IMG/VR virus record: IMGVR_UViG_3300036884_000676
Strand: one strand, 5' to 3'
DNA: 64,000 nucleotides
Source: a virus
Taxonomy: Duplodnaviria; Heunggongvirae; Uroviricota; Caudoviricetes
A model generated the notes under the pieces. That model did not search any database. It was not told the origin of the DNA and saw nothing but the letters and a program-made list of their open reading frames with translations. Both the position numbers and the translations under genes were made by a program. Positions 2,188 through 52,598 of the stretch are shown one piece after another. Numbering within the stretch: the first letter of the stretch is position 1; the number at the start of each line of letters is the position of its first letter.

Positions 2188-4644
2188 TTAGTATCTGTTA
2201 AGAACATTTTTCATATGCTCAACTTGTTCATCAGAAAGTGAATAATTATCGTATGTATTTATGTTTTCATTCAATACTTTCTTTCCTGTGTTAGCTTGTG
2301 CATATTGTAGAAGATCTCTGGTTAACCAGAATGATTCTACTTTTTTCTCCGTAGTTAAGTCAGTATAGAATTGTGCTGTATCTAAAATACTTTCTTGTAC
2401 TTTCGGATTTAATTTTTCCCAAATTGGCTGTAAGTCACTTGGAATATTTTCAACCAATGTTTCATTTAATGATCTGGTTGGTTTGAACAATGCTTTCTGC
2501 ATTAATATAAGAACATCACTTTCGTTTGAATAATTTCCCTTGTTTTCGTTCATGACAAAGTTTACTTTTTCCTTATCTTCTGGAGTTAAACCATAATAAG
2601 CGGCTTTCTTCTTTTCAGGTAAGAATAATAAGAAGTGAGGATCTTCTGTCTTAGCGGCTTCGCGTTTTTTAGCGGCTTCGATGAGTTTCTTTATGTCTTT
2701 TGTTATCTGATTCGTATTTTCGTAAATTTTGGTTGTACCTAAAATTGTAAGTCTACTTTCTTCGACTTCAACTTCTTCGCCAGTATCTCCCATTTTTACA
2801 ACTACAATTTTTGTAGTATCATCTGTTGCGAGAACTTCACCTGTACGAGTTGGTTCTTCAGTAGCTCCTTCAGTACCTTCTGGTTGTGCTGTTTCTTCAT
2901 CTTTATCTCCCTTAACAGTAACAATCATACCCGGAGTAATACCTAAACCTGTTTCTTCTTGTGGTGGAACTTCCTCAGTATTTACACCTTCAGCATCCTG
3001 AGCTGGTGTTTCTTCTACTGGTGGTGTTTCACCTTGTACTGGTGCTTCCTGAGCTGGTTTTTCTTCAGCTGGAGGTGTTTCCTGAGCCGGTTCTTCAACC
3101 TTAGGTTCTTCTGTTGCACCATCTGCTGGTTTTTCTTCTGGTTTATCTTCATAATAATTTGAAGGATCATCAGTTGTCATATCACCAATGGCTTCAGTAA
3201 CACCTAATTTCTCAACAACTCTCTTTGTGTAGTCAATGTGTCTATCAATGACTTCTGCTTCATATTTTTGATAAGCGATAGAATCGGTAAGATTTTCAGC
3301 CAACATTTCTGAATAACGGATACCGTTATCAGTTTGTTCTGCTACATATTCACCATATCTGATAGCGTTATCTACATGCTCGGCGATGTATTGAGTATAA
3401 TCAACAATCTTTTCTGCACTTTCACTGATGTAATCGGCGTAATCAACAAGATTGTCAACCGTTTCGGCTACATATTCAGCGTACATAATGTTCTTATCGA
3501 GATGTTCTGCGATATAATCAGCGTAATCAGCTATCTTATCAAAGTTTTCAGCGATGTATTCACTATATTTAATAGTGTTTTCAGTCTGTTCAGCTACATA
3601 TTCGATAAAACTAATACCGTTATCTAACTTTTCAGCGATGTATTTTTGATAATCAATAACTTGGTCGGTTGTACCTGCTAAATAATCAATATAACCAATT
3701 GTTTTTTCGACTGCTTCTGCGATGTGGTCGTTGTGTTCGATAATGAGTTTTGTTTTTTCTTTGTTTTTCTCAACTCTTTCTTCCAGTTTGTCGTTTGTTT
3801 TCTTCAACTGTTTGTTTTCTTGAACTAAAACATTAATCGCGTCTGCTATCTGATCAAGATATTCGGCCATTCTTTTTTGACCCTCGGATAATGTTTCGAA
3901 TTCTTCATAAAGGCGAGAGAGTTTTTCCGGATCGAAATTCTTTGAATTAAGAGTTTCTTCAATGGAATTTTTTGTTTTCAATAACTCACTGTCTAAATAG
4001 GATTTGAACTCTTCCAATTTTGTCTGAGTTCCAATTTCGTTTTTTTCCATATTGAACAATTCATTTATTTTTGACTCCTCAGATATATCGAATATCCTGA
4101 AGTTTAAATTTTCATTGAATCCCAATGATTCATTCATGTTTTTCAATTCCATTCGGGCTGAACTAAATCCGGGGTCTGCAACACAATCATAGGTGAATAA
4201 CTTTTTAATTGTTACTTCACCATTCGATTCTGTTACACCGGCAGCTCTACTGGAAACGAAAATAGGTAGGTCATCATCTACAAGAGCTTGTGCTTCCTTT
4301 CCATAAAAGGTATTAGTTAATTTAATTTCTCCATCAACTCTATTGGTTTCCTTTATAAACCAAGCATTTTGAATTGTATGAGAAATACGAGTTAAGCTAG
4401 TATCAAATACATCTGGATGATCAAACTCTCCATAGACAACTTTTAACAGTTTTTTTCTTTCTAATAATTCACTAAGATGGGGTAAGAATTTCTCTGCGGT
4501 GTAAATCCTGTCATTTCTATTTCTAATATTGAATTCTGTAAAAATACCCTTCATGATATATAGGATATTACCCTTACTACTTACGACCTCATTGATTTTC
4601 TCCAGACCACCCAATGTATTATCAATTATTATTACATTTTTCAT
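2188..4644 (-). CDS. prohead protease (gp21-like) fused to scaffold/core protein
   Basis: N-terminal NRNDRIY, GEFDHP, SSRAAG and TYDCVADPGFSSA motifs of gp21; followed by 14-aa coiled-coil repeats and an acidic Pro-rich linker. Confidence 0.9.
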   Translation of the reverse strand: MKNVIIIDNTLGGLEKINEVVSSKGNILYIMKGIFTEFNIRNRNDRIYTAEKFLPHLSELLERKKLLKVVYGEFDHPDVFDTSLTRISHTIQNAWFIKETNRVDGEIKLTNTFYGKEAQALVDDDLPIFVSSRAAGVTESNGEVTIKKLFTYDCVADPGFSSARMELKNMNESLGFNENLNFRIFDISEESKINELFNMEKNEIGTQTKLEEFKSYLDSELLKTKNSIEETLNSKNFDPEKLSRLYEEFETLSEGQKRMAEYLDQIADAINVLVQENKQLKKTNDKLEERVEKNKEKTKLIIEHNDHIAEAVEKTIGYIDYLAGTTDQVIDYQKYIAEKLDNGISFIEYVAEQTENTIKYSEYIAENFDKIADYADYIAEHLDKNIMYAEYVAETVDNLVDYADYISESAEKIVDYTQYIAEHVDNAIRYGEYVAEQTDNGIRYSEMLAENLTDSIAYQKYEAEVIDRHIDYTKRVVEKLGVTEAIGDMTTDDPSNYYEDKPEEKPADGATEEPKVEEPAQETPPAEEKPAQEAPVQGETPPVEETPAQDAEGVNTEEVPPQEETGLGITPGMIVTVKGDKDEETAQPEGTEGATEEPTRTGEVLATDDTTKIVVVKMGDTGEEVEVEESRLTILGTTKIYENTNQITKDIKKLIEAAKKREAAKTEDPHFLLFLPEKKKAAYYGLTPEDKEKVNFVMNENKGNYSNESDVLILMQKALFKPTRSLNETLVENIPSDLQPIWEKLNPKVQESILDTAQFYTDLTTEKKVESFWLTRDLLQYAQANTGKKVLNENINTYDNYSLSDEQVEHMKNVLNRY
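3211..3735 (-). repeat. about 13 x 14-aa protein repeat, [YF]xx[YF][IV]AE
   Basis: YQKYIAE, FIEYVAE, YSEYIAE, YADYIAE, YAEYVAE etc. at an exact 14-residue period. Confidence 0.9.
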
Positions 4645-4667: not shown

Positions 4668-4703
4668 TTATATATATTCACCAAATAATATGGTATTTTT
4701 CCA
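4668..4703 (-). promoter_or_regulatory. late promoter of protease/scaffold gene
   Basis: Minus strand AATGGAAAAATACCATATTATTTGGTGAATATATATAA, about 25 nt before ATG. Confidence 0.65.
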
Positions 4704-15914: not shown

Positions 15915-17021
15915 ATGATATATAATATACAAAATCAAATTGACTTATCAGGATTCTACATTGTCTATAATGGTGTTGTCGTAAATGAAAAAGAGGGAAC
16001 TTATGGAATATCTCATTTAATAGAACATTTAGTATGTAAAAACTGGAATGATGAATTTGTGGATTCATTAGAAAAAAACGGTATAACTTGGAATGCTTAT
16101 ACAACACCGAATAATATAGTTTTCTATATCAAAGGTTTAGATGATTATGTTTATAATTTCAAAAATGAATTTCTTCAAAAAATCACAAACTTCAAAATAA
16201 CTCCTGATGTTTTTAAAATAGAAAAAAATGTGGTTTTAGAGGAATATACCGACTTATTCAATAGGTATAATAAAAATCATTTTCTCAATTTATATAGAAA
16301 AGTACTAAACAACTATAATTCAGTTGGGAAAAAAGAGGACATAGAACAATTAACAATGGAAAAATGCTTAGAACATTATTCGCAGTTTTATAGTAATCCA
16401 TCTAAAATAATATACATATCAAAGAAATATAAAGAAGAAACAACAAATATAACCTTTGATGATAAGTCAAGTAAAAAAACTTTTAAATTAGGAACATATG
16501 ATTATACCTTAGAAACTCCTTTATTATCTGGAAATAAATCTTCTATTATTTACCTTTCTCCAATAATAAATGAAGATTTCGATAAGATAATATTCATCAA
16601 CTATCTTCTATCTGGAGGATTAAAATCTCCGTTATATAAAGCAATTAGAGAAAAAAATAGTTTGGCTTATTATATCAACTGTCGTATTGATCGTCTGGAT
16701 GATAAAGGAATCATAATTATTTCAACCGAAACGAGCGATGTTAATGTGGAAAAATTAAATGAAACTATAATCAATGTTTTTAAAGAAAGATCCTATTTAA
16801 CCAGAGAAAAATTTGAAAGTGTAAAAAATTTCATTAAAATCAGTTTGATAAAATCGAATATTAACTTACAAGACAATGAAGATAAATTCATTCTCCCCCA
16901 GAATTGGCTTATAGAAGATACAATCGACAAGTTAACTTATGAGGATATTATGGTGGCTTTTGATAAATATTTCAACATCAATGACTTCTATAAAAGTGTA
17001 AATAAAAATGAATTTTCTTAA
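15915..17021 (+). CDS. M16 (insulinase-family) zinc peptidase
   Basis: GISHLIEHL inverted HxxEH, NAYT, EKNVVLEE and IREKNSLAY. Confidence 0.9.
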   Translation: MIYNIQNQIDLSGFYIVYNGVVVNEKEGTYGISHLIEHLVCKNWNDEFVDSLEKNGITWNAYTTPNNIVFYIKGLDDYVYNFKNEFLQKITNFKITPDVFKIEKNVVLEEYTDLFNRYNKNHFLNLYRKVLNNYNSVGKKEDIEQLTMEKCLEHYSQFYSNPSKIIYISKKYKEETTNITFDDKSSKKTFKLGTYDYTLETPLLSGNKSSIIYLSPIINEDFDKIIFINYLLSGGLKSPLYKAIREKNSLAYYINCRIDRLDDKGIIIISTETSDVNVEKLNETIINVFKERSYLTREKFESVKNFIKISLIKSNINLQDNEDKFILPQNWLIEDTIDKLTYEDIMVAFDKYFNINDFYKSVNKNEFS

Positions 17022-17433: not shown

Positions 17434-17958
17434 ATGAACAAAAACAACAGAGAAAAAACAGAAAAAATCAATCATCAAATTACATCTCATTCAGTTAGAC
17501 TAATATTTACAGATGGAACTCAACCATATGTAACCACAACAACGGAAGCTTTACAATTGTCGAAAGACTTGGGTGTGGATCTAATTGAAATTTCACCAAC
17601 AGCAAACCCACCAGTTTGTAAAATGATGGATTACAATAAGTTCCTTTACGAAAAGAAACAAAAAGACAAAGAAAATCAGAAAAACAATAAAAAAATAAAA
17701 TTGAAAGAGATCCGTATGACTTATAATACGGGAGAACATGATTTCAATTTTAAATTAAATCATGCCATCAATTTTCTCAACGATGGTGATAAAGTTAAAG
17801 CCTTTATATTTTTCGCTGGCCGAGAGCTAAAATTCAAAGAAATCGGGGAATTATTATTGTTGAAATTCGTTGATGGACTTAAAGAAGTCGGAAAAATTGA
17901 AAATATGCCTAAACTGGATGGTAACAGATTGTGGGTCATAATCCAACCGAAAAAATAA
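17434..17958 (+). CDS. infC: translation initiation factor IF-3
   Basis: VRLI...EAL......DLIEISPTANPPVCKMMDYNKFLYE and KEIRM...GEHDFNFK....FL..GDKVK. Confidence 0.95.
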   Translation: MNKNNREKTEKINHQITSHSVRLIFTDGTQPYVTTTTEALQLSKDLGVDLIEISPTANPPVCKMMDYNKFLYEKKQKDKENQKNNKKIKLKEIRMTYNTGEHDFNFKLNHAINFLNDGDKVKAFIFFAGRELKFKEIGELLLLKFVDGLKEVGKIENMPKLDGNRLWVIIQPKK

Positions 17959-18821: not shown

Positions 18822-19787
18822 TTAGATATTTATCGAATTTTTCATATTTTCGTAAAGTTGTTTTGGTGTTGATTCTTCATCCAATTTCACGATTTTTAGG
18901 TTTCTTTTCAATCTTTCCATAATTATAACATCTTGGCTATTGTCTAATCTCTTGCTAAACTTAATTATCTCAAGCAGGTTGTCTTTAAATACCTGAGAGT
19001 TAAAATCTATCGTGCCGGGATATGTCCCCTTATATAGAGTATAAATCGTTTGAATACCAGCATCTCCAATCCCACGATTTCCCTGCATAAAGATTGATTT
19101 GATATTATCTTTTCCATGACCCATTATCTTTCTGAAAAGTTCGAATTCATTATTTATCTCAACTGTCTTTTTTCCATTGAGAAATTTTTCGAAAAATTCA
19201 ACGAATTCCATTTCATTATTTGTTTGAAAAAGATTATCCTCAAAAGTCTTAACGATATTATCAGTGAACATATTATATTGTTCTGGTAGATAAACCCTTT
19301 CATCATTATATTTGAAATTATACATCATATTGATGTATTTGAGATCTAATCCATCATAGCAAATAAGTTCATATAAATCACTATCAGACGATACTATAAA
19401 CGTTGATTCCCCCTTTTTGTTTAAATTCTTTACAAGATATGCCATTATATCATCACCTTCCATCCTATCGACTTGAAGTAAATCAACAGTTTTTTTGAAT
19501 GATATGGCTGTTTTTAATTCACCATATTCTTGATAAATGAATTTCCAATCTATATCTTCGTCTTTTTTTCTTGTCCCTTTATATTCAGGATAAAAGTCTT
19601 TTCTCCAATTACCAGTGGAATCAGAGATGAAAAATGTTTTACGAAAATGAAAAAGGTGGGTTAAAATGTTGAAATCCCTTTCCAAAATATTATATAATTC
19701 CGAATAAAGGATCTTGTTTTTCCAGAGAGTACTTATATTTTTTCGTAAAAGATAATTCCCATCAATAAGCAAATTTAAATTAATCAT
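18822..19787 (-). CDS. T4 RNase H-like 5'-3' exonuclease
   Basis: LLIDGN, WRKDFYPEYKGTR, EGDDIMA and SSDSDL; start moved to ATG 19787. Confidence 0.88.
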   Translation of the reverse strand: MINLNLLIDGNYLLRKNISTLWKNKILYSELYNILERDFNILTHLFHFRKTFFISDSTGNWRKDFYPEYKGTRKKDEDIDWKFIYQEYGELKTAISFKKTVDLLQVDRMEGDDIMAYLVKNLNKKGESTFIVSSDSDLYELICYDGLDLKYINMMYNFKYNDERVYLPEQYNMFTDNIVKTFEDNLFQTNNEMEFVEFFEKFLNGKKTVEINNEFELFRKIMGHGKDNIKSIFMQGNRGIGDAGIQTIYTLYKGTYPGTIDFNSQVFKDNLLEIIKFSKRLDNSQDVIIMERLKRNLKIVKLDEESTPKQLYENMKNSINI

Positions 19788-19842
19788 TAAGGATTGATTA
19801 TTTTTCCTTATATAAAGTAGGTAAGAATGAAAGTTTATTATT

Positions 19843-20247
19843 TTAAGTGAGTGGAATATCTTCATCTGAAAGAATCCAATCTAATTTGAGCCTTCTTTCT
19901 TCATTAGTCATATAAGGTAGTTTGTCTTGATAATCAGCCAACATATTTGGTTTTTCTGGATCATCATTAATTACTCCTTCAGACTCCATCAAATATAATT
20001 TATTGTCATTAATTTTATAAAAAGGTGTCTTTTGGGGTGATTCTCTGTATATCATTTCGGTACAACCAAAAATAGAACCAATAGGATGTTCTTCTCGGAT
20101 ACTATGTGAACAAGATATATTTAATGTCACATCTAAATCCTTACCATTCAATTTTTGTCCACCAAGAACACGAACACGAACTTTCTTATCTTTTTTCCTG
20201 CTACCATTTTCTTTTTCGTAACAAGTTTTAACATAATAATAAGCCAT
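19843..20247 (-). CDS. hypothetical early protein
   Basis: 134-aa ORF; early-promoter-like sequence upstream; C-terminal ERRLKLDWIL motif. Confidence 0.7.
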   Translation of the reverse strand: MAYYYVKTCYEKENGSRKKDKKVRVRVLGGQKLNGKDLDVTLNISCSHSIREEHPIGSIFGCTEMIYRESPQKTPFYKINDNKLYLMESEGVINDDPEKPNMLADYQDKLPYMTNEERRLKLDWILSDEDIPLT

Positions 20248-20308
20248 ATCTCTGATTTTTTAATAAAGTTAAAAAAAAAATTCGAATAAAAAAATTAAAA
20301 GATTAGAT

Positions 20309-20620
20309 TTATATCATATAAGTTACTTTATCAAAACGAGGAAGAACAAGAGGTTGATTGTTTTCATCAAGCCCCATATTCACTTCATAAGTATAATAAA
20401 TAGTGACTGAATTTAATTTTTCTTTTTTAACTGGTTCACTACCATCTTCCGTTAATAGAGTTTCAGTTTCATAATTTAATTCAACACCCGGAATCTCACC
20501 AATCAAAGAATGTAAATCATTTTTAATTTGATTCGTATTTAAATTTCTTTCACTCAGGTCATATTGACTTGAAAAATAATTATTTATTTGCATTTTTTTG
20601 AAATTAGCTATTTCATCCAT
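20309..20620 (-). CDS. hypothetical late protein
   Basis: 103 aa; TTAATATATAA at 20643-20653. Confidence 0.65.
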   Translation of the reverse strand: MDEIANFKKMQINNYFSSQYDLSERNLNTNQIKNDLHSLIGEIPGVELNYETETLLTEDGSEPVKKEKLNSVTIYYTYEVNMGLDENNQPLVLPRFDKVTYMI

Positions 20621-20669
20621 TTTTTGAAAGATTTATTTTGACTTATATATTAAAACTAATGAGATCAGT

Positions 20670-22931
20670 TTAAATTAGTTTACTGATACTGTTCAGCATT
20701 TGATTTTTAGTTATTGGTTTGGACAAAAAATCATCAGCACCTAAATCATAAGCCTTTTTTCTAAATTCTGAAACAGCATATGCTGATTGAACAATTACGA
20801 CAATATTTTTATTGTGTGATTTCACATCTTTCAAAACTTTATAACCATCTATATCTCCAAGTCCAAGGTCGAGAAGAACTAAATTAATTTTATTCTTCTT
20901 GATAGTTTCTAAAACTTTATTACCATCACTAACAAAAATTTTGCAATTAGTTGCTTTTAAATAGGATCTCAGTATGTGTATAAAATTTTCATCATCCTCA
21001 ATTATTAAAATATTTATACCTGTTAAATCAATTAATTCGTCCTCTTCGGTATTTTCTGAAACATATATATCATCCTTTATAGCATAGGGAACTTCAAAAT
21101 AAAAAGTACTCCCCTTATCCAATTCAGAATCAAATTTTAAATCACCATAACCCAAAATTTCAATTAATGATTTCGAAATAGGTAAACCCAATCCGGCACC
21201 TTTGTTCTTTGATCCCGGTTGTCCAAATTGTGCAAAACGATTAAATATAATTTTGAGATTGTCTTTTGAAATTCCTATTCCAGTATCTTTAACATATATT
21301 TTCAATTTGTTTTTATCCAAAATTTCATAACCAAATTTAACGAACCCTTTTTTCGTGAATTTTATAGCATTACTTAATAAATTCATTAAAATTTGTTTCA
21401 ATCTATATTTATCAGTACATATACGAATATTACTATTTAAATCAATATCAATATTTAATTTAACTTTACTTGTACCAATGATTTTCGAATATTGTACTTT
21501 CAATTCTTGTAATAATTTATTGAGTTCAACTTCTGTTTTCTGAACTTTCAATGTACCAGAATCTATCTTAGTAATATCTATAATATCATTTATTAAATTG
21601 GTCAATATATCACCATTCTGGATAATAATATCCAAATAATTCATCTTCTCTGCTTTACTCACATTCTCTTTTAAGAGTTCAGAAAATCCTATTATACTAT
21701 TAATAGGAGTTCTCAAATCATGGCTCATATTAGATAAAAAAGCCATTTTTAATTTTTCAGATTCTTCTGCCTTTTCTTTGGATTTTATCAATTCTTCTTC
21801 GAATATTTTTCTATCGGTGATGTCTAATCCAAAAGATATTGTTCCTGATATAATATTATGCTTTCTAACTTCATTATTTTGCCACAATATATACCTTATT
21901 TCACCATGTTTTGTGATAATAGAATTTTCAACAATATCCGTAGAATCATCTTCTGATAAAATAGATTCGAATATTTTATTAACTTTAGGTAATTCATTCT
22001 TTGGTAATATCGGAATATCATTAAACCAATTCTTTCCCATCATTTCTTCTTTTGAATATCCAGTTATTTTTTCTGCTGTTTTATTAAATATATTTACACG
22101 GCCATTTATATCCAATCCAACAATCATAACATTTGCTGTATTCAATAGATTTTCCGTGAATAAATATGAATCTCTTAAAGTATTTTCTAATTCTATGTTT
22201 TCGGTAATATCTGATAATATTGAAATAAAACCTATATCGTTCCAAGGAGAACTTGACACTTCAAAGTGTTTGTTCATTTTTGGATAATAAAATCTAAATT
22301 TCTTCGGTTTTTTGTGTAAAACAACATCAGCATATTGATCTAACACTGGAATTTCACCATAAATTTCACTGGCCAACTTTCCTTTAACTTCTTCTCTCTT
22401 GAAACCAAATATATCCTCATATGTCTGATTGGTATCTATTATAGTATAATCTACTGGTTTTCCTTTTTCATCAAATATCATTTCGTGAATTGCCACTCCC
22501 TCAATCATATTATCCAATAATGATTCAAAATAAAGCTCATATTTTTTTAAATTTTTCCTTTTTATTTGCTGAAGTTTATTTTTAAGTACATTTTCTAAGG
22601 CGGATTTAATTTCCGATTTATCTGATGTTTTTATAATATAAGATGATACCCCGGCCCCAAACATTTTATTTTTCCAAATCACTGAATCTTCACAAGTAAA
22701 GATAGCAATTGGAATATCTGGATATGCATCTTTTAGGATTTCTGTATTTTCAACTGGATCAGTTTCGTTCAACAACAAATCTAATATAATAATATCAAAT
22801 TTTGATGAATCTAAATTTAATGCCCCCTCAAGGGTTAATGATGAAAACACAATTTCAGCAAAATCTTTTGTTAGAGTTTTAATACCAGAGATCGTAACTG
22901 GATGGTCATCTATAACTAATAATCTTATCAT
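20670..22931 (-). CDS. hybrid sensor histidine kinase, REC-PAS-PAS-HisKA-HATPase-REC
   Basis: VIDDH...IILDL...YIIK; two PAS-like segments; FLSNMSHDLRTPINSIIGF; NLLSNAIKFT, DTGIGI, GAGLGL; IIEDD...LLDLG...FLSKP. Confidence 0.95.
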   Translation of the reverse strand: MIRLLVIDDHPVTISGIKTLTKDFAEIVFSSLTLEGALNLDSSKFDIIILDLLLNETDPVENTEILKDAYPDIPIAIFTCEDSVIWKNKMFGAGVSSYIIKTSDKSEIKSALENVLKNKLQQIKRKNLKKYELYFESLLDNMIEGVAIHEMIFDEKGKPVDYTIIDTNQTYEDIFGFKREEVKGKLASEIYGEIPVLDQYADVVLHKKPKKFRFYYPKMNKHFEVSSSPWNDIGFISILSDITENIELENTLRDSYLFTENLLNTANVMIVGLDINGRVNIFNKTAEKITGYSKEEMMGKNWFNDIPILPKNELPKVNKIFESILSEDDSTDIVENSIITKHGEIRYILWQNNEVRKHNIISGTISFGLDITDRKIFEEELIKSKEKAEESEKLKMAFLSNMSHDLRTPINSIIGFSELLKENVSKAEKMNYLDIIIQNGDILTNLINDIIDITKIDSGTLKVQKTEVELNKLLQELKVQYSKIIGTSKVKLNIDIDLNSNIRICTDKYRLKQILMNLLSNAIKFTKKGFVKFGYEILDKNKLKIYVKDTGIGISKDNLKIIFNRFAQFGQPGSKNKGAGLGLPISKSLIEILGYGDLKFDSELDKGSTFYFEVPYAIKDDIYVSENTEEDELIDLTGINILIIEDDENFIHILRSYLKATNCKIFVSDGNKVLETIKKNKINLVLLDLGLGDIDGYKVLKDVKSHNKNIVVIVQSAYAVSEFRKKAYDLGADDFLSKPITKNQMLNSISKLI

Positions 22932-22954
22932 TTTTAATATGAACCCACTTTTTC

Positions 22955-22966
22955 AAATATATATAA
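22955..22966. promoter_or_regulatory. near-symmetric late-type motif between divergent kinase and RuvC-like genes
   Basis: AAATATATATAA lies 20-25 nt from both starts. Confidence 0.5.
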
Positions 22967-22987
22967 AAAAAGCAATCCAATAATTTT

Positions 22988-23722
22988 ATGAATTTGGTTG
23001 GAATAGACATATCGGTTAATAGTACTGGATTATCAATACTTAGAAATGATGAAATAATTTTATTTAATTTCACCACCACCAAAAAGAGTTATGTGTGGAT
23101 TAAAAAAACTTTAGAACATATAGATTTCGAGTTTATTAATTACACTCATCCAGATATAAAGAATTATAGTGAGAAAGAAATAATAAAACTGAGAGAATTC
23201 GACAAAGTATCTGATATGATTTTCAATAAAGTATATGGTAATATTGATAAGAGTAAAAAGACTTATATATGTATTGAAGGTTATAATTATGGATTGAAAA
23301 ATACTAATTCAATCATCGATATTGTTACTTTAACCACAATGATTCGTAAGAAATTATATGATGGAATTCCTAATCTTGAACAAATTCTCATTTTGGCACC
23401 AACTTCTATAAAAAGTAAAACCTGTGAGATGGTATATGGGTCAACAACAGTTGAAAAAGTTAATAAAAAAGGAATTAAAAAAGTAACCAAAACTATAAAT
23501 AAAAGTCCTGATAATATAACAGGTGGAAAATTTGAAAAACATGATATGTTGAAAGCCATCATTGATTTCGACATTGATATTAAATTGACCAGTTTCTTAA
23601 AAGAAAATAAAGATGAATTATTATCCCATAAGAACATACCAAAACCGTTTGATGATATAATTGATTCTCTATTTATTTTATTAATATTGAAAGATATCAT
23701 CAAACAGAAAACAATTTTGTGA
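22988..23722 (+). CDS. RuvC-like nuclease / Holliday junction resolvase
   Basis: VGIDISVNSTG, CIEGYNYG, APTSIK and DDIIDS acidic RNase H-fold pattern. Confidence 0.75.
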   Translation: MNLVGIDISVNSTGLSILRNDEIILFNFTTTKKSYVWIKKTLEHIDFEFINYTHPDIKNYSEKEIIKLREFDKVSDMIFNKVYGNIDKSKKTYICIEGYNYGLKNTNSIIDIVTLTTMIRKKLYDGIPNLEQILILAPTSIKSKTCEMVYGSTTVEKVNKKGIKKVTKTINKSPDNITGGKFEKHDMLKAIIDFDIDIKLTSFLKENKDELLSHKNIPKPFDDIIDSLFILLILKDIIKQKTIL

Positions 23723-23762
23723 TTTTAATATATAACCCCATAGAAAAATTATTCACTATTAA

Positions 23763-24725
23763 ATGTTTGATGCTTATGATTCTTATAATAACTTAACTGA
23801 TATTGCTTTCATTCCAAGATACAATTGGAAATTGAATGAAAGTACCAATATAATTACGGAAGCCCAAATGAATAAAGATTTAGTACCGGGTTTTCCCATC
23901 AATAAATTGATGAAATTCACTCCTCAAATGGATAATAAATTAGAACCATTACTTATTAAGGCAATTCAATATGGAATGGCATTAACAATAAGTTACAGGG
24001 GAGATAAGGATAAATGGCGTGGTGGTCGTATTCGTACCATCTATCCAATGGCCCTTGGTGTGAATCATAATACAAAGAATAAATTATTAAGAACTTTTCA
24101 TGTCGAGGGATGGTCTGTTCATAAAAGAAAAGAAGTTAATGACGAATGGAGATTAATGAAAACTATGAACATAATGTCAATAATGTTCACTGGAAATTTC
24201 TATCGAATGGCTCCAGCTGGTTATCGTCTTAATGATAGAGCTATGACAGAACGAATGATTTGTCAGGCTGATTTTTCAACTATTAGAAGAAATCAACAAA
24301 CCCTTATTAATGAGAAAAAAATTGAGAAGGTTGTTGAAACCGAACCAAAGAAAGTTCAAATCTCTAATCTAAATAAAACTTTAAATCTCAAAAAACCATT
24401 CGAAGGATTTGATAAAAAGGATCTCGAAAAACTTGAAATCACTATTTTAAAATCCATATTATCCAAACCAGAAAATAATTATGTTGCTATTGTAGGGGTC
24501 AGAGGAATTAAAGATCATAGAACCAGATTATTCACAAAAGAAAGTGGTGGAACAAGAGAAATGGGTAATTATTTAGTTCTTAGATATTTAACAAAATCAT
24601 CATCAAATAATACTAATTTGATAGAAACTTCTGTTCAAGCTCAAGATCAAGTTGAAAGACCATGTTATAATGTGGATGGAAAAACAGAATTTCCATTATT
24701 CAAATTTGATGGATTTATAAAATAA
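23763..24725 (+). CDS. WYL-like domain protein
   Basis: AI...MALTISYRG....R.IYP.ALG....LRTF...G.S....EWRLM....I pattern; late motif 23725-23735. Confidence 0.6.
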   Translation: MFDAYDSYNNLTDIAFIPRYNWKLNESTNIITEAQMNKDLVPGFPINKLMKFTPQMDNKLEPLLIKAIQYGMALTISYRGDKDKWRGGRIRTIYPMALGVNHNTKNKLLRTFHVEGWSVHKRKEVNDEWRLMKTMNIMSIMFTGNFYRMAPAGYRLNDRAMTERMICQADFSTIRRNQQTLINEKKIEKVVETEPKKVQISNLNKTLNLKKPFEGFDKKDLEKLEITILKSILSKPENNYVAIVGVRGIKDHRTRLFTKESGGTREMGNYLVLRYLTKSSSNNTNLIETSVQAQDQVERPCYNVDGKTEFPLFKFDGFIK

Positions 24726-51131: not shown

Positions 51132-52598
51132 TTACCACCTACGAAGTTTTCCCCACACTACCATTAACTTAGTTTTGATACTTGGGTTCAATTCACGATT
51201 TAACCACAGTTTAGCACCCTTTAAAGTGGTAAATTCGAGGTTATCCTGAGCTTCATCTGCCTTCTTCAAGATTTCACCGAACTTCAATCCCGGCTTCATC
51301 CCGATTTCAATCAGATGGCGACCCATCAGAATGGACTTCCTCTGTTCAGTTGTAACATGGAGTGTCTTTGCGAGATTCCATACTTCCTCGATTTCAGTCC
51401 TAACTTTAAGAATCCTTTCTTCATCGACATTATCCCTACCCAGAGCATCAGCCTCAATAACAAAGAGTAAATCCTTGATAGTAGACGGATGAATGTTCTT
51501 AGAAAGTCTCAGAAGAGCTTTCTTCCTACTACTCAGTCCGTTGATTGAAAAGATGTTGACATGAGCCAAATGGAACTTAATCAGTTTTACAATCTGTTCG
51601 ACCAACACTGGTTTAATTCCAATCCTGTTAAGGATTTCTTCAGCCATCACAGCACCTAATCCCTCATGACCCTTACTTGTAACACAAATTCTACCACCCT
51701 TTTCTTCATGTTCGGTAGTTTGTGGTTTTGCGATATCATGAAGTAACATGGTAAACATGAACTTGGCTCTTTCATCCTCGACAATTCCCTCTCTTTCACA
51801 AATACTCAACATCCTTTTCATGGTCAGTTGGGTATGCTTTTCAACATCACCCTCTGGGTGCCAAATCGGGTCTTGTTCAGTATCTTTCAGAAGTCCAAGT
51901 TCAGGAATAACGACCATAGAACCACTTTCACGAAGAAAATCAAAAATCAGTTCAGGGTGTTTTCCCTTAATTGCCCATTTCATGAATTCTTCGGATAACC
52001 TTTCTTTCGGAAGATGTTTCAGTTCTTCAGACATTTCCCTCATGACCTCAAAAGTTTCAGGTGCCACAGTAAATCCAAAACGGGATTGAAACTGTAAACC
52101 CCTCAGAACCCTAAGAGAATCTTCCTTAAACTTATCAGAAGTATGACGAATGATACCATTCTGTAAATCTTCCAGACCGTTAAAGAAGTCAAAAAGGATA
52201 TTGTTAATTGGGTCGAAACCCAGAGCGTTCCATGTAAAATCCCTACGGAGAGCGGCTTCTTCTTTGGTCATTGGTTCGAAACTAACTTCGAAATCCTTAT
52301 GACCAACACCAAGACGATTTTCCTTACGAGGTACGGAAAAATCACATTCCAAATTATCTTTTTTGAATTTCAAAATACCGAAACTCTTACCTACGGAATC
52401 AACCTTTCCAAGACGGGAAAGAATCTTATCAAGTTGTTCGACAGTACATCCATGCACTTCAATATCAATATCTTTCGGATCAATTTCCATAAATTTATCA
52501 CGGACACATCCCCCGATCAATACGGGTTCAAATCCATTTTTACGGAGTTCCTGAAGAATCGAAATTAATATGTTATCGGTGAATGTGATGTTCGTCAT
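51132..52598 (-). CDS. cca: CCA-adding tRNA nucleotidyltransferase with HD domain
   Basis: GGCVRD...KDIDIE, RRDFTWNA, F.EDSLRVLR, ERL.EE, HPEGDV..H and LLHDIAK. Confidence 0.9.
   Translation of the reverse strand: MTNITFTDNILISILQELRKNGFEPVLIGGCVRDKFMEIDPKDIDIEVHGCTVEQLDKILSRLGKVDSVGKSFGILKFKKDNLECDFSVPRKENRLGVGHKDFEVSFEPMTKEEAALRRDFTWNALGFDPINNILFDFFNGLEDLQNGIIRHTSDKFKEDSLRVLRGLQFQSRFGFTVAPETFEVMREMSEELKHLPKERLSEEFMKWAIKGKHPELIFDFLRESGSMVVIPELGLLKDTEQDPIWHPEGDVEKHTQLTMKRMLSICEREGIVEDERAKFMFTMLLHDIAKPQTTEHEEKGGRICVTSKGHEGLGAVMAEEILNRIGIKPVLVEQIVKLIKFHLAHVNIFSINGLSSRKKALLRLSKNIHPSTIKDLLFVIEADALGRDNVDEERILKVRTEIEEVWNLAKTLHVTTEQRKSILMGRHLIEIGMKPGLKFGEILKKADEAQDNLEFTTLKGAKLWLNRELNPSIKTKLMVVWGKLRRW

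Follow-up and report, generated by a model that had tools for sequence, protein, structure and literature searches.

A hybrid sensor histidine kinase gene held at a fixed position in a lineage of huge tailed phages

The window analysed here is a 64,000-nucleotide (nt) stretch of a virus of the class Caudoviricetes, corresponding to bases 41511-105510 of the 110,119-bp IMG/VR record IMGVR_UViG_3300036884_000676, whose completeness is put by CheckV at 23%, which implies a full genome of several hundred kilobases. A single unbroken open reading frame (ORF) at 20670-22931 on the minus strand encodes a hybrid sensor histidine kinase of 753 amino acids (aa; P0001). Its domain order is receiver (REC)-PAS-PAS-HisKA-HATPase_c-REC, with every domain above its curated Pfam cut-off: PAS_8 at residues 134-191, PAS at 260-368, HisKA at 396-459, HATPase_c at 507-616 and Response_reg at 641-749, together with an N-terminal Response_reg domain. 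From the N to the C terminus, the parts of the protein, including the dimerization and histidine phosphotransfer (DHp) helices, are laid out in the window as follows:

22566-22931, minus strand: REC1, a NarL/VraR-like receiver (residues 1-122), with phospho-acceptor D51 at 22779-22781
22182-22544, minus strand: PAS-A (residues 130-250), matched by PAS_8, with a PAS fold in the AlphaFold2 model and 55-71% identity to orthologs
21804-22178, minus strand: PAS-B (residues 252-376), directly N-terminal of the DHp helix, PAS E = 7e-17
21537-21794, minus strand: DHp/HisKA (residues 380-465), with phospho-histidine H404 at 21720-21722, and D405 and T408 forming a DxxT motif
21072-21434, minus strand: catalytic ATP-binding (CA) domain (residues 500-620), with N, G1, F and G2 boxes
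20673-21026, minus strand: REC2, the C-terminal receiver (residues 636-753), with phospho-acceptor D688 at 20868-20870

HisKA (PF00512) scores 67.6 bits against a cut-off of 26.9 (E = 9.7e-19) and HATPase_c (PF02518) 80.1 bits against 26.4 (E = 2.2e-22), while for PF00072 the C-terminal receiver reaches 86.2 bits and REC1, the weaker of the two, 49.5 bits against a cut-off of 30.2 in a record-wide search. A preceding reading of this DNA, made from its letters alone and referred to below as the sequence-only reading, had described the phosphotransfer residues as apparently intact, and every residue that it listed is indeed present. REC1 carries D8/D9, D51 (in IIILDLLL), T79 and K101; the kinase core carries H404 (in SHDLRTP), N521, DTGIG at 549-553 and GAGLG at 578-582; and REC2 carries E645/D646, D688 (in LLDLG), S716 and K738 (in SKP). 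The protein thus combines an H-box DHp domain, an HATPase_c domain with N, G1, F and G2 boxes and a fused C-terminal receiver, the features of a class I (HisKA-type) hybrid kinase. It was also rightly described as lacking a transmembrane segment, the highest 19-residue Kyte-Doolittle mean being 1.11, and no hydrophobic membrane-type segment occurs in any other member of the kinase clade defined below. No capsid-targeting leader precedes the N-terminal receiver, whose first strand forms the very start of the protein. The closest PDB and NCBIfam matches of REC1 are the receivers of VraR, a LuxR-family regulator, ChrA, EvgA and NarL, at low scores of 40-47 bits; REC1 contains a DDHP motif and is followed by PAS domains rather than by a LuxR-type helix-turn-helix. 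Judged by its domains and residues, the kinase is, as a protein, unremarkable, a soluble hybrid histidine kinase with PAS domains and of Bacteroidota type, for which autophosphorylation and His-to-Asp transfer are predicted from residue conservation and from a nonsynonymous-to-synonymous rate ratio (dN/dS) of 0.07 between orthologs. An antisense ORF of 169 aa (21778-22287, plus strand) lies inside the gene, and a 64%-identical counterpart runs antisense to the kinase gene of a 735-kb relative; it is most likely a side effect of sequence conservation in the kinase gene, which is read from the other strand.

The top match among deposited phages is this relative, an uncultured phage of 735,411 bp (LR756501.1/LR756503.1). 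The comparison covered nine related loci of different sample origin, namely LR756501, two IMG/VR contigs, three JGI/ENA metagenome contigs and three Logan/JGI contigs; the two IMG/VR loci were found by an alignment-based query, a single-protein query of IMG/VR having given no match. All nine share the gene order g320, RuvC-like gene and, on the divergent strand, the kinase gene. Beyond the 103-aa gene that lies downstream, where the contigs reach, g134, the 5'-3' exonuclease gene, the IF3 gene, the M16 peptidase gene and g855 come in order. In the window, the immediate neighbourhood comprises the following features:

22988-23722, plus strand: RuvC-like resolvase gene (244 aa; phrog_159, E = 1.4e-6), the constant divergent neighbour of the kinase gene
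22932-22987, no strand: divergent spacer of 56 nt with a palindromic TATATATA box at 22958-22965, a candidate bidirectional T4-late-like promoter
20309-20620, minus strand: conserved 103-aa gene just downstream of the kinase gene, which it follows in 7 of 9 loci
18822-20247, minus strand: g134 and 5'-3' exonuclease genes (Pfam 5_3_exonuc_N), downstream of the kinase gene and syntenic in L009, L012, L013 and L102

The RuvC-like gene adjoins the kinase gene in every one of the nine loci, its products being 47-81% identical. The relatives and the synteny that the sequence-only reading had proposed to look for are therefore found, with the kinase gene in the same slot divergent from the RuvC-like gene. 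On this conserved position, the kinase gene is a fixed feature of a huge-phage lineage that includes LR756501. The largest genomes described by Al-Shayeb et al. (2020) form the "Mahaphage" clade, with predicted Bacteroidetes hosts (PMC7162821).

Such constancy bears directly on whether the gene could be a host fragment misassembled into phage DNA or a recent passenger useless to the phage. Two observations speak for this: the 110-kb record is classed as a provirus in IMG/VR, and the nearest cellular relatives are Bacteroidota kinases of similar architecture (for example P0078, with 95% query coverage). Nevertheless, recurrence of the same slot in nine independently assembled loci refutes a chimeric host insert, the event that the sequence-only reading had named as fatal to its own account. 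The gene follows its surroundings in composition, with a GC content of 27.0% against 27.6-27.9% in the flanks, and kinase GC likewise follows locus GC in every related locus, from 22% to 29%. Cellular proteins are at most about 40% identical to the kinase compared with 45-73% for phage orthologs, and a monophyletic clade and the dN/dS of 0.07 are equally at odds with a recent passenger. A host-like flank was likewise not found: the ten longest flank ORFs sampled showed neither one nor an integrase, and the remainder of the record holds no host-like block but short ORFans together with a split half of a B-family polymerase, a helicase, PARG and an SPFH protein. Since the record lacks such a block, the provirus label looks like a mis-call, which probably arises from cell-like translation genes. 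The genes around the kinase were correctly regarded as phage genes, those identified in the window encoding a major head protein, a prohead protease, a portal protein, IF3, an M16 peptidase, a 5'-3' exonuclease and the RuvC-like resolvase. A misassembled fragment or idle passenger is thus a highly improbable explanation.

Protein searches returned 42 clusters at E <= 1e-148 with 45-73% identity to the window kinase, after which there is a sharp drop, the next matches scoring about 340 bits with no more than 40% identity and the named ones belonging to Bacteroidota (Prolixibacteraceae, "Bacteroidetes bacterium"). In a scan of GTDB species representatives (one genome per prokaryotic species), the best cellular relatives were 34-38% identical over more than half the core, and the closest matches were almost all Bacteroidota, from Bacteroidales (Tenuifilaceae and Prolixibacteraceae) and Flavobacteriaceae. 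The DHp-CA-REC2 core of 95 rows was used for a tree (LG+G4, quick IQ-TREE search), which placed the window kinase and 41 other phage rows in one clade, with a Shimodaira-Hasegawa-like approximate likelihood ratio test (SH-aLRT) support of 100 and a stem of 0.42, nested among Bacteroidota kinases; the comparison with these kinases suggested by the sequence-only reading accordingly gives a clear phage clade within them. The sister protein P0045 (support 91) lies in a Bacteroidota chromosomal setting, with a gene for the D-Ala-D-Ala ligase Ddl on one side and genes with type IX secretion system (T9SS) sorting domains on the other. The simplest reading of this tree would be a single old acquisition from the host phylum, and because the backbone outside the clade is poorly resolved, the donor family cannot be named. 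Outside the clade, a 759-aa hybrid kinase (P0043) is encoded on a phage-like contig of 8,081 bp (Logan SRR22315503). Its neighbours there are a further kinase-receiver protein (498 aa), an enzyme of the CCA/poly(A) polymerase type and a thymidine kinase; this contig looks like another phage lineage, with two kinases.

Within the phage clade, the catalytic core is constant. All 42 rows share H404, N517, N521, D549, G551, G553, F563, F566, G578, G580 and G582, and in REC2 the residues D646, D688 and K738 are invariant, with S or T at position 716 and E645 either kept or conservatively replaced. Between the gene of the 735-kb phage (L001) and its ortholog in L010, dN/dS is 0.07 overall, 0.02-0.05 in DHp, CA and REC2 and 0.08-0.12 in the PAS domains, at a dS of about 0.96, which is near saturation. 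This pattern of substitution indicates that the kinase core and the C-terminal receiver are under strong purifying selection. The input region ahead of the core, by comparison, takes the following forms across the clade:

two PAS domains: length about 626 aa
three PAS domains: length 737 aa
four PAS domains: length about 855 aa
five PAS domains: length 986 aa
GAF-PAS: length about 685 aa
GAF-PAS-GAF-PAS: length about 950 aa
REC1 placed ahead of PAS/GAF arrays: length 753-1113 aa

The combination in the window, REC1 with two PAS domains, occurs in no other cluster of the clade. REC1 is 50-77% identical among seven members (the window kinase and six others), all of which retain its five key residues, and it is optional, being absent from the 735-kb phage and from L101. 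The latter is the closest relative by flanking genes (79-88% identical) and yet has no REC1, the junction falling exactly at KKYE[HL]YFESLL. The window PAS-B is 62-74% identical in the distant loci L001, L010 and L014, as it is in L101, and has been swapped for a different PAS or GAF domain in L009, L012, L013 and L102, despite flanks 72-81% identical to those of the window. Retention in distant loci and replacement in near ones point to exchange of sensor modules among lineages around a constant core.

Taken together, position, phylogeny and selection make it probable that the gene encodes a functional, soluble, phage-owned hybrid kinase, taken up once from a Bacteroidota-type host by the huge-phage lineage related to LR756501 and inherited vertically since then. 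A mechanism can be outlined on this basis. The kinase would dimerize through its DHp helices, and a cytoplasmic cue read by the PAS domains would set the rate of H404 autophosphorylation, with the phosphorylation state of D51 acting as a second input in the REC1-bearing variant. The phosphoryl group would then move from H404 to D688 of the C-terminal receiver, and the signal would most likely exit through host histidine phosphotransfer (Hpt) and response-regulator proteins; alternatively, the kinase may act on host proteins as a phosphatase or a phosphate sink.

The route through host proteins is suggested by the lack of phage partners, as even the 735-kb genome showed neither an Hpt domain nor a receiver joined to an output domain. 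The Hpt model (PF01627, E <= 0.1), which matched 10 of 14 control genomes, had no match in the 110-kb record and none in the 735-kb relative; no receiver besides REC1 and REC2 occurs in the record; and no response regulator with an output domain is present in either the record or LR756501. The absence of Hpt and of a separate response regulator, noted before for the window, thus extends to the whole record, and the genome-wide search that had been recommended leads to the same result in the large relative. One candidate for a hidden Hpt, the 103-aa downstream protein, was rejected, since its sole histidine (H37) is Gln in orthologs and its C-terminal half appears beta-rich by eye; it has no family match.

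Stand-alone receivers do exist in two relatives. LR756501 has one such gene of 123 aa at about 350.3 kb (L005:1483-1854, minus strand), about 312 kb from its kinase gene, and L013 has one of 114 aa (3338-3682, plus strand) about 4.3 kb from its kinase gene; none was found on the two IMG/VR contigs. In both cases the kinase lacks REC1, whereas the window kinase has REC1 and no stand-alone receiver accompanies it in 110 kb. This complementary arrangement would fit a closed phage circuit, in which the kinase signals to phage stand-alone receivers or to its own REC1 and thereby to phage late functions by protein contact, with no host part. The anticorrelation, however, rests on four cases, and contigs of 41 kb and 50 kb with REC1-less kinases hold no other receiver. 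REC1 shares no more than family membership with the stand-alone receivers (E = 0.3), and these are also dissimilar to each other; for these reasons, a reading of REC1 as their fused copy (a Rosetta-stone link) was rejected after BLAST comparison. Moreover, transfer from a hybrid kinase to a second receiver normally requires an Hpt protein, and no such protein was found. A self-contained circuit of this kind is accordingly improbable.

A different role would be for the kinase to run chiefly in the reverse direction. As a phosphatase or a sink for phosphate, it would drain or jam host phosphorelays (for example, in stress or defence signalling) without relaying any information itself, with its two receivers serving as decoys for host kinases or Hpt proteins. 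The DxxT motif of HisKA domains goes with phosphatase activity, and this motif beside H404 (SHDLRT) is kept in the clade, with D or E at position 405 in 42 of 42 rows. Two intact receivers without an output domain or Hpt are in line with such a role, as are the NarL/VraR type of REC1, which is normally phosphorylated by a separate kinase, and the stand-alone receivers of some relatives, which are sinks in known systems. On the other hand, all 42 rows keep the N, G1, F and G2 boxes unchanged, which a protein acting purely as a phosphatase or decoy would not need, and elaborate, fast-changing PAS/GAF inputs favour regulated signalling. Comparison with PADLOC defence-system kinases gave no match beyond an 18-bit partial receiver alignment, and assignment as a defence-system kinase was rejected. 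On balance, we regard action mainly as a phosphatase or sink as unlikely, although less so than a closed phage circuit, and retain regulated signalling by a functional phage kinase as the preferred interpretation.

As for what the sensor region could read, an AlphaFold2 model of PAS-A and PAS-B (predicted local distance difference test score, pLDDT, 87.5) shows two PAS folds linked by a long helix, on which the tandem PAS domains of FixL (8js5), DosP (9cmf), NifL (9qq6) and MmoS (3ewk) superpose with template-modelling (TM) scores of up to 0.69; these proteins are only 13-16% identical to the phage PAS pair. The kinase PAS domains contain no LOV cysteine motif, and a FixL-type heme histidine is not conserved, as H205, the sole histidine on the F-alpha helix of PAS-A, is replaced by Asn in the 735-kb ortholog. 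Assignment of a cofactor was rejected, given the absence of a conserved motif and a fold match to generic tandem PAS domains.

The spacer between the kinase and RuvC-like genes provides a hint about the timing of expression. Its TATATATA box stands 26 nt upstream of the kinase ATG and 22 nt upstream of that of the RuvC-like gene, and it is retained in 8 of 8 orthologous spacers examined, in which the surrounding bases diverge. The T4 late promoter is TATAAATA, which boxes of the TATATATA class resemble, and the carrier phages have T4-type head genes. Across the record, a TATA[TA]ATA box begins 24-34 nt ahead of the ATG of eight genes, including those for the major head protein (TATAAATA), the prohead protease, the kinase and the RuvC-like protein. 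The late-type motif that the sequence-only reading had seen shared by the kinase gene and its divergent neighbour is therefore present in the spacer and recurs at capsid and protease genes. Because TATATATA/TATAAATA boxes are common to these genes, the kinase gene probably belongs to the late transcription class, and late expression is considered likely. Sigma-70 promoters and intrinsic terminators around the kinase gene are no more frequent than in shuffled sequences, and no terminator-like site was found in 19700-23800, and none separates the kinase gene from the genes for the 103-aa protein, g134 and the exonuclease. In addition, every exact TTATATATA in the window (at 4668, 22958, 27073, 52657, 56060, 58763 and 60420) falls in a short intergenic spacer closely preceding a gene, in most cases one that divides two divergent genes, with 9 strand matches against 3.9 expected. 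This placement suggests that the palindromic TTATATATA box may be a bidirectional promoter element.

Several considerations weigh against the interpretation developed above, in which a functional phage kinase would sense the host cytoplasm late in infection. The dN/dS value derives from the orthologs of two relatives (L001 and L010) rather than from the gene in the window, at a dS close to saturation. The PAS fold yields no ligand, its best structural matches being 13-16% identical. Box enrichment is weak in AT-rich DNA, with 8 observed against a shuffle mean of 3.4 and a shuffle maximum of 12, and the box also precedes genes without an obvious late role. With only about 23% of the phage represented in the record, partners could be encoded in the missing part, and Hpt domains are divergent enough for one Pfam model to miss them. 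Finally, the tree was obtained with a single-matrix model and a quick search, and its backbone around the clade is poorly resolved.

It is reasonable to suppose, as the sequence-only reading did, that the kinase may read the state of the host, feed into host phosphorelays or time lysis. A more specific scenario, which is possible but tentative, although not as doubtful as any of the alternatives weighed above, is that of a private, late-expressed sensor with exchanged modules, in which the NarL-type receiver would eavesdrop on a host kinase and the output, passing through host Hpt proteins and regulators, would decide late events such as packaging, lysis timing or lysis hold. If true, this would be a virus-owned decision circuit made of two-component parts, for which no published description was found. 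Phage lysis/lysogeny decisions use small dedicated sensors, such as arbitrium and receptors of host quorum signals, and a histidine kinase with PAS/GAF inputs would extend this known set of phage decision sensors. More generally, long fixation of the kinase, purifying selection and the swapping of sensor modules suggest that huge phages may use the signalling chemistry of the host itself to gauge conditions inside the cell. The kinase lineage, through LR756501, includes what we take to be the largest phage genome on record. Some 42 natural variants, in which one constant core is joined to different inputs, provide testable material, and the missing Hpt and regulator lead to a clear prediction, namely cross-talk with Bacteroidota phosphorelays. 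The interest of the system thus lies in its carrier, its fixed slot and its modular evolution.

Other genes of the window include those for an M16-family peptidase (15915-17021), a full-length IF3 (17434-17958) and a CCA-adding tRNA nucleotidyltransferase (51132-52598), of which the IF3 and M16 peptidase genes are syntenic with the kinase region in relatives. In two close relatives, a glycoside hydrolase family 16 gene lies between the 103-aa gene and g134 (L101:6600-7478 and L102:6288-7223); it is absent from that position in the window.

With regard to earlier work, a literature search found no paper on this kinase family, on the kinase families of PHROGs or on histidine kinases of huge phages. 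The word "kinase" is absent from Al-Shayeb et al. (2020; PMC7162821), and Iyer et al. (2021; PMC7824862) name histidine kinases only to set their divergent receiver apart from two-component systems. Histidine kinases in phage genomes are nevertheless already catalogued, as shown by the PHROGs families phrog_20458, phrog_5982, phrog_857 and phrog_10912 ("kinase"), which match the core of the phage kinase with E values from 2.6e-84 to 6.8e-48; all but one are listed as "unknown function", and none spans REC1 and PAS-A. The statement of the sequence-only reading that full two-component kinases are uncommon in phages consequently stands for small phages but not more broadly, since several phage kinase families are represented in PHROGs, phrog_20458 among them with E = 2.6e-84, and the gene is fixed in the lineage described here.

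Among named families, the best matches to the HisKA-HATPase_c-REC core are LuxQ, TorS, ArcB and BarA (NF041947, TIGR02956, NF008302 and NF008318) at 226-274 bits, and the same chemistry is expected, from His to Asp within one polypeptide followed by an Hpt step. These scores compare with equivalog cut-offs of 676-1200 bits, so the phage kinase is not an ortholog of any of the four. Moreover, LuxQ, TorS, ArcB and BarA sit in the membrane, sense through periplasmic domains and rely on an Hpt that is either fused or dedicated (LuxU in the case of LuxQ), whereas the phage kinase has neither a membrane segment nor an Hpt. Closer counterparts are the soluble "PAS domain S-box" hybrid kinases of Bacteroidota (P0078, P0045 and L015, a Tenuifilaceae locus), which share its PAS-HisKA-HATPase_c-REC core and, like it, lack an Hpt domain and a membrane anchor. 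P0078, a 761-aa protein from a Prolixibacteraceae metagenome-assembled genome, and likewise P0075 and P0094, even show the same REC-PAS-PAS-kinase-REC order over 95% of the length. In contrast to the phage proteins, which form a clade on a long, fully supported stem and keep a fixed phage neighbourhood, these Bacteroidota kinases are chromosomal and 31-40% identical to the phage kinase.

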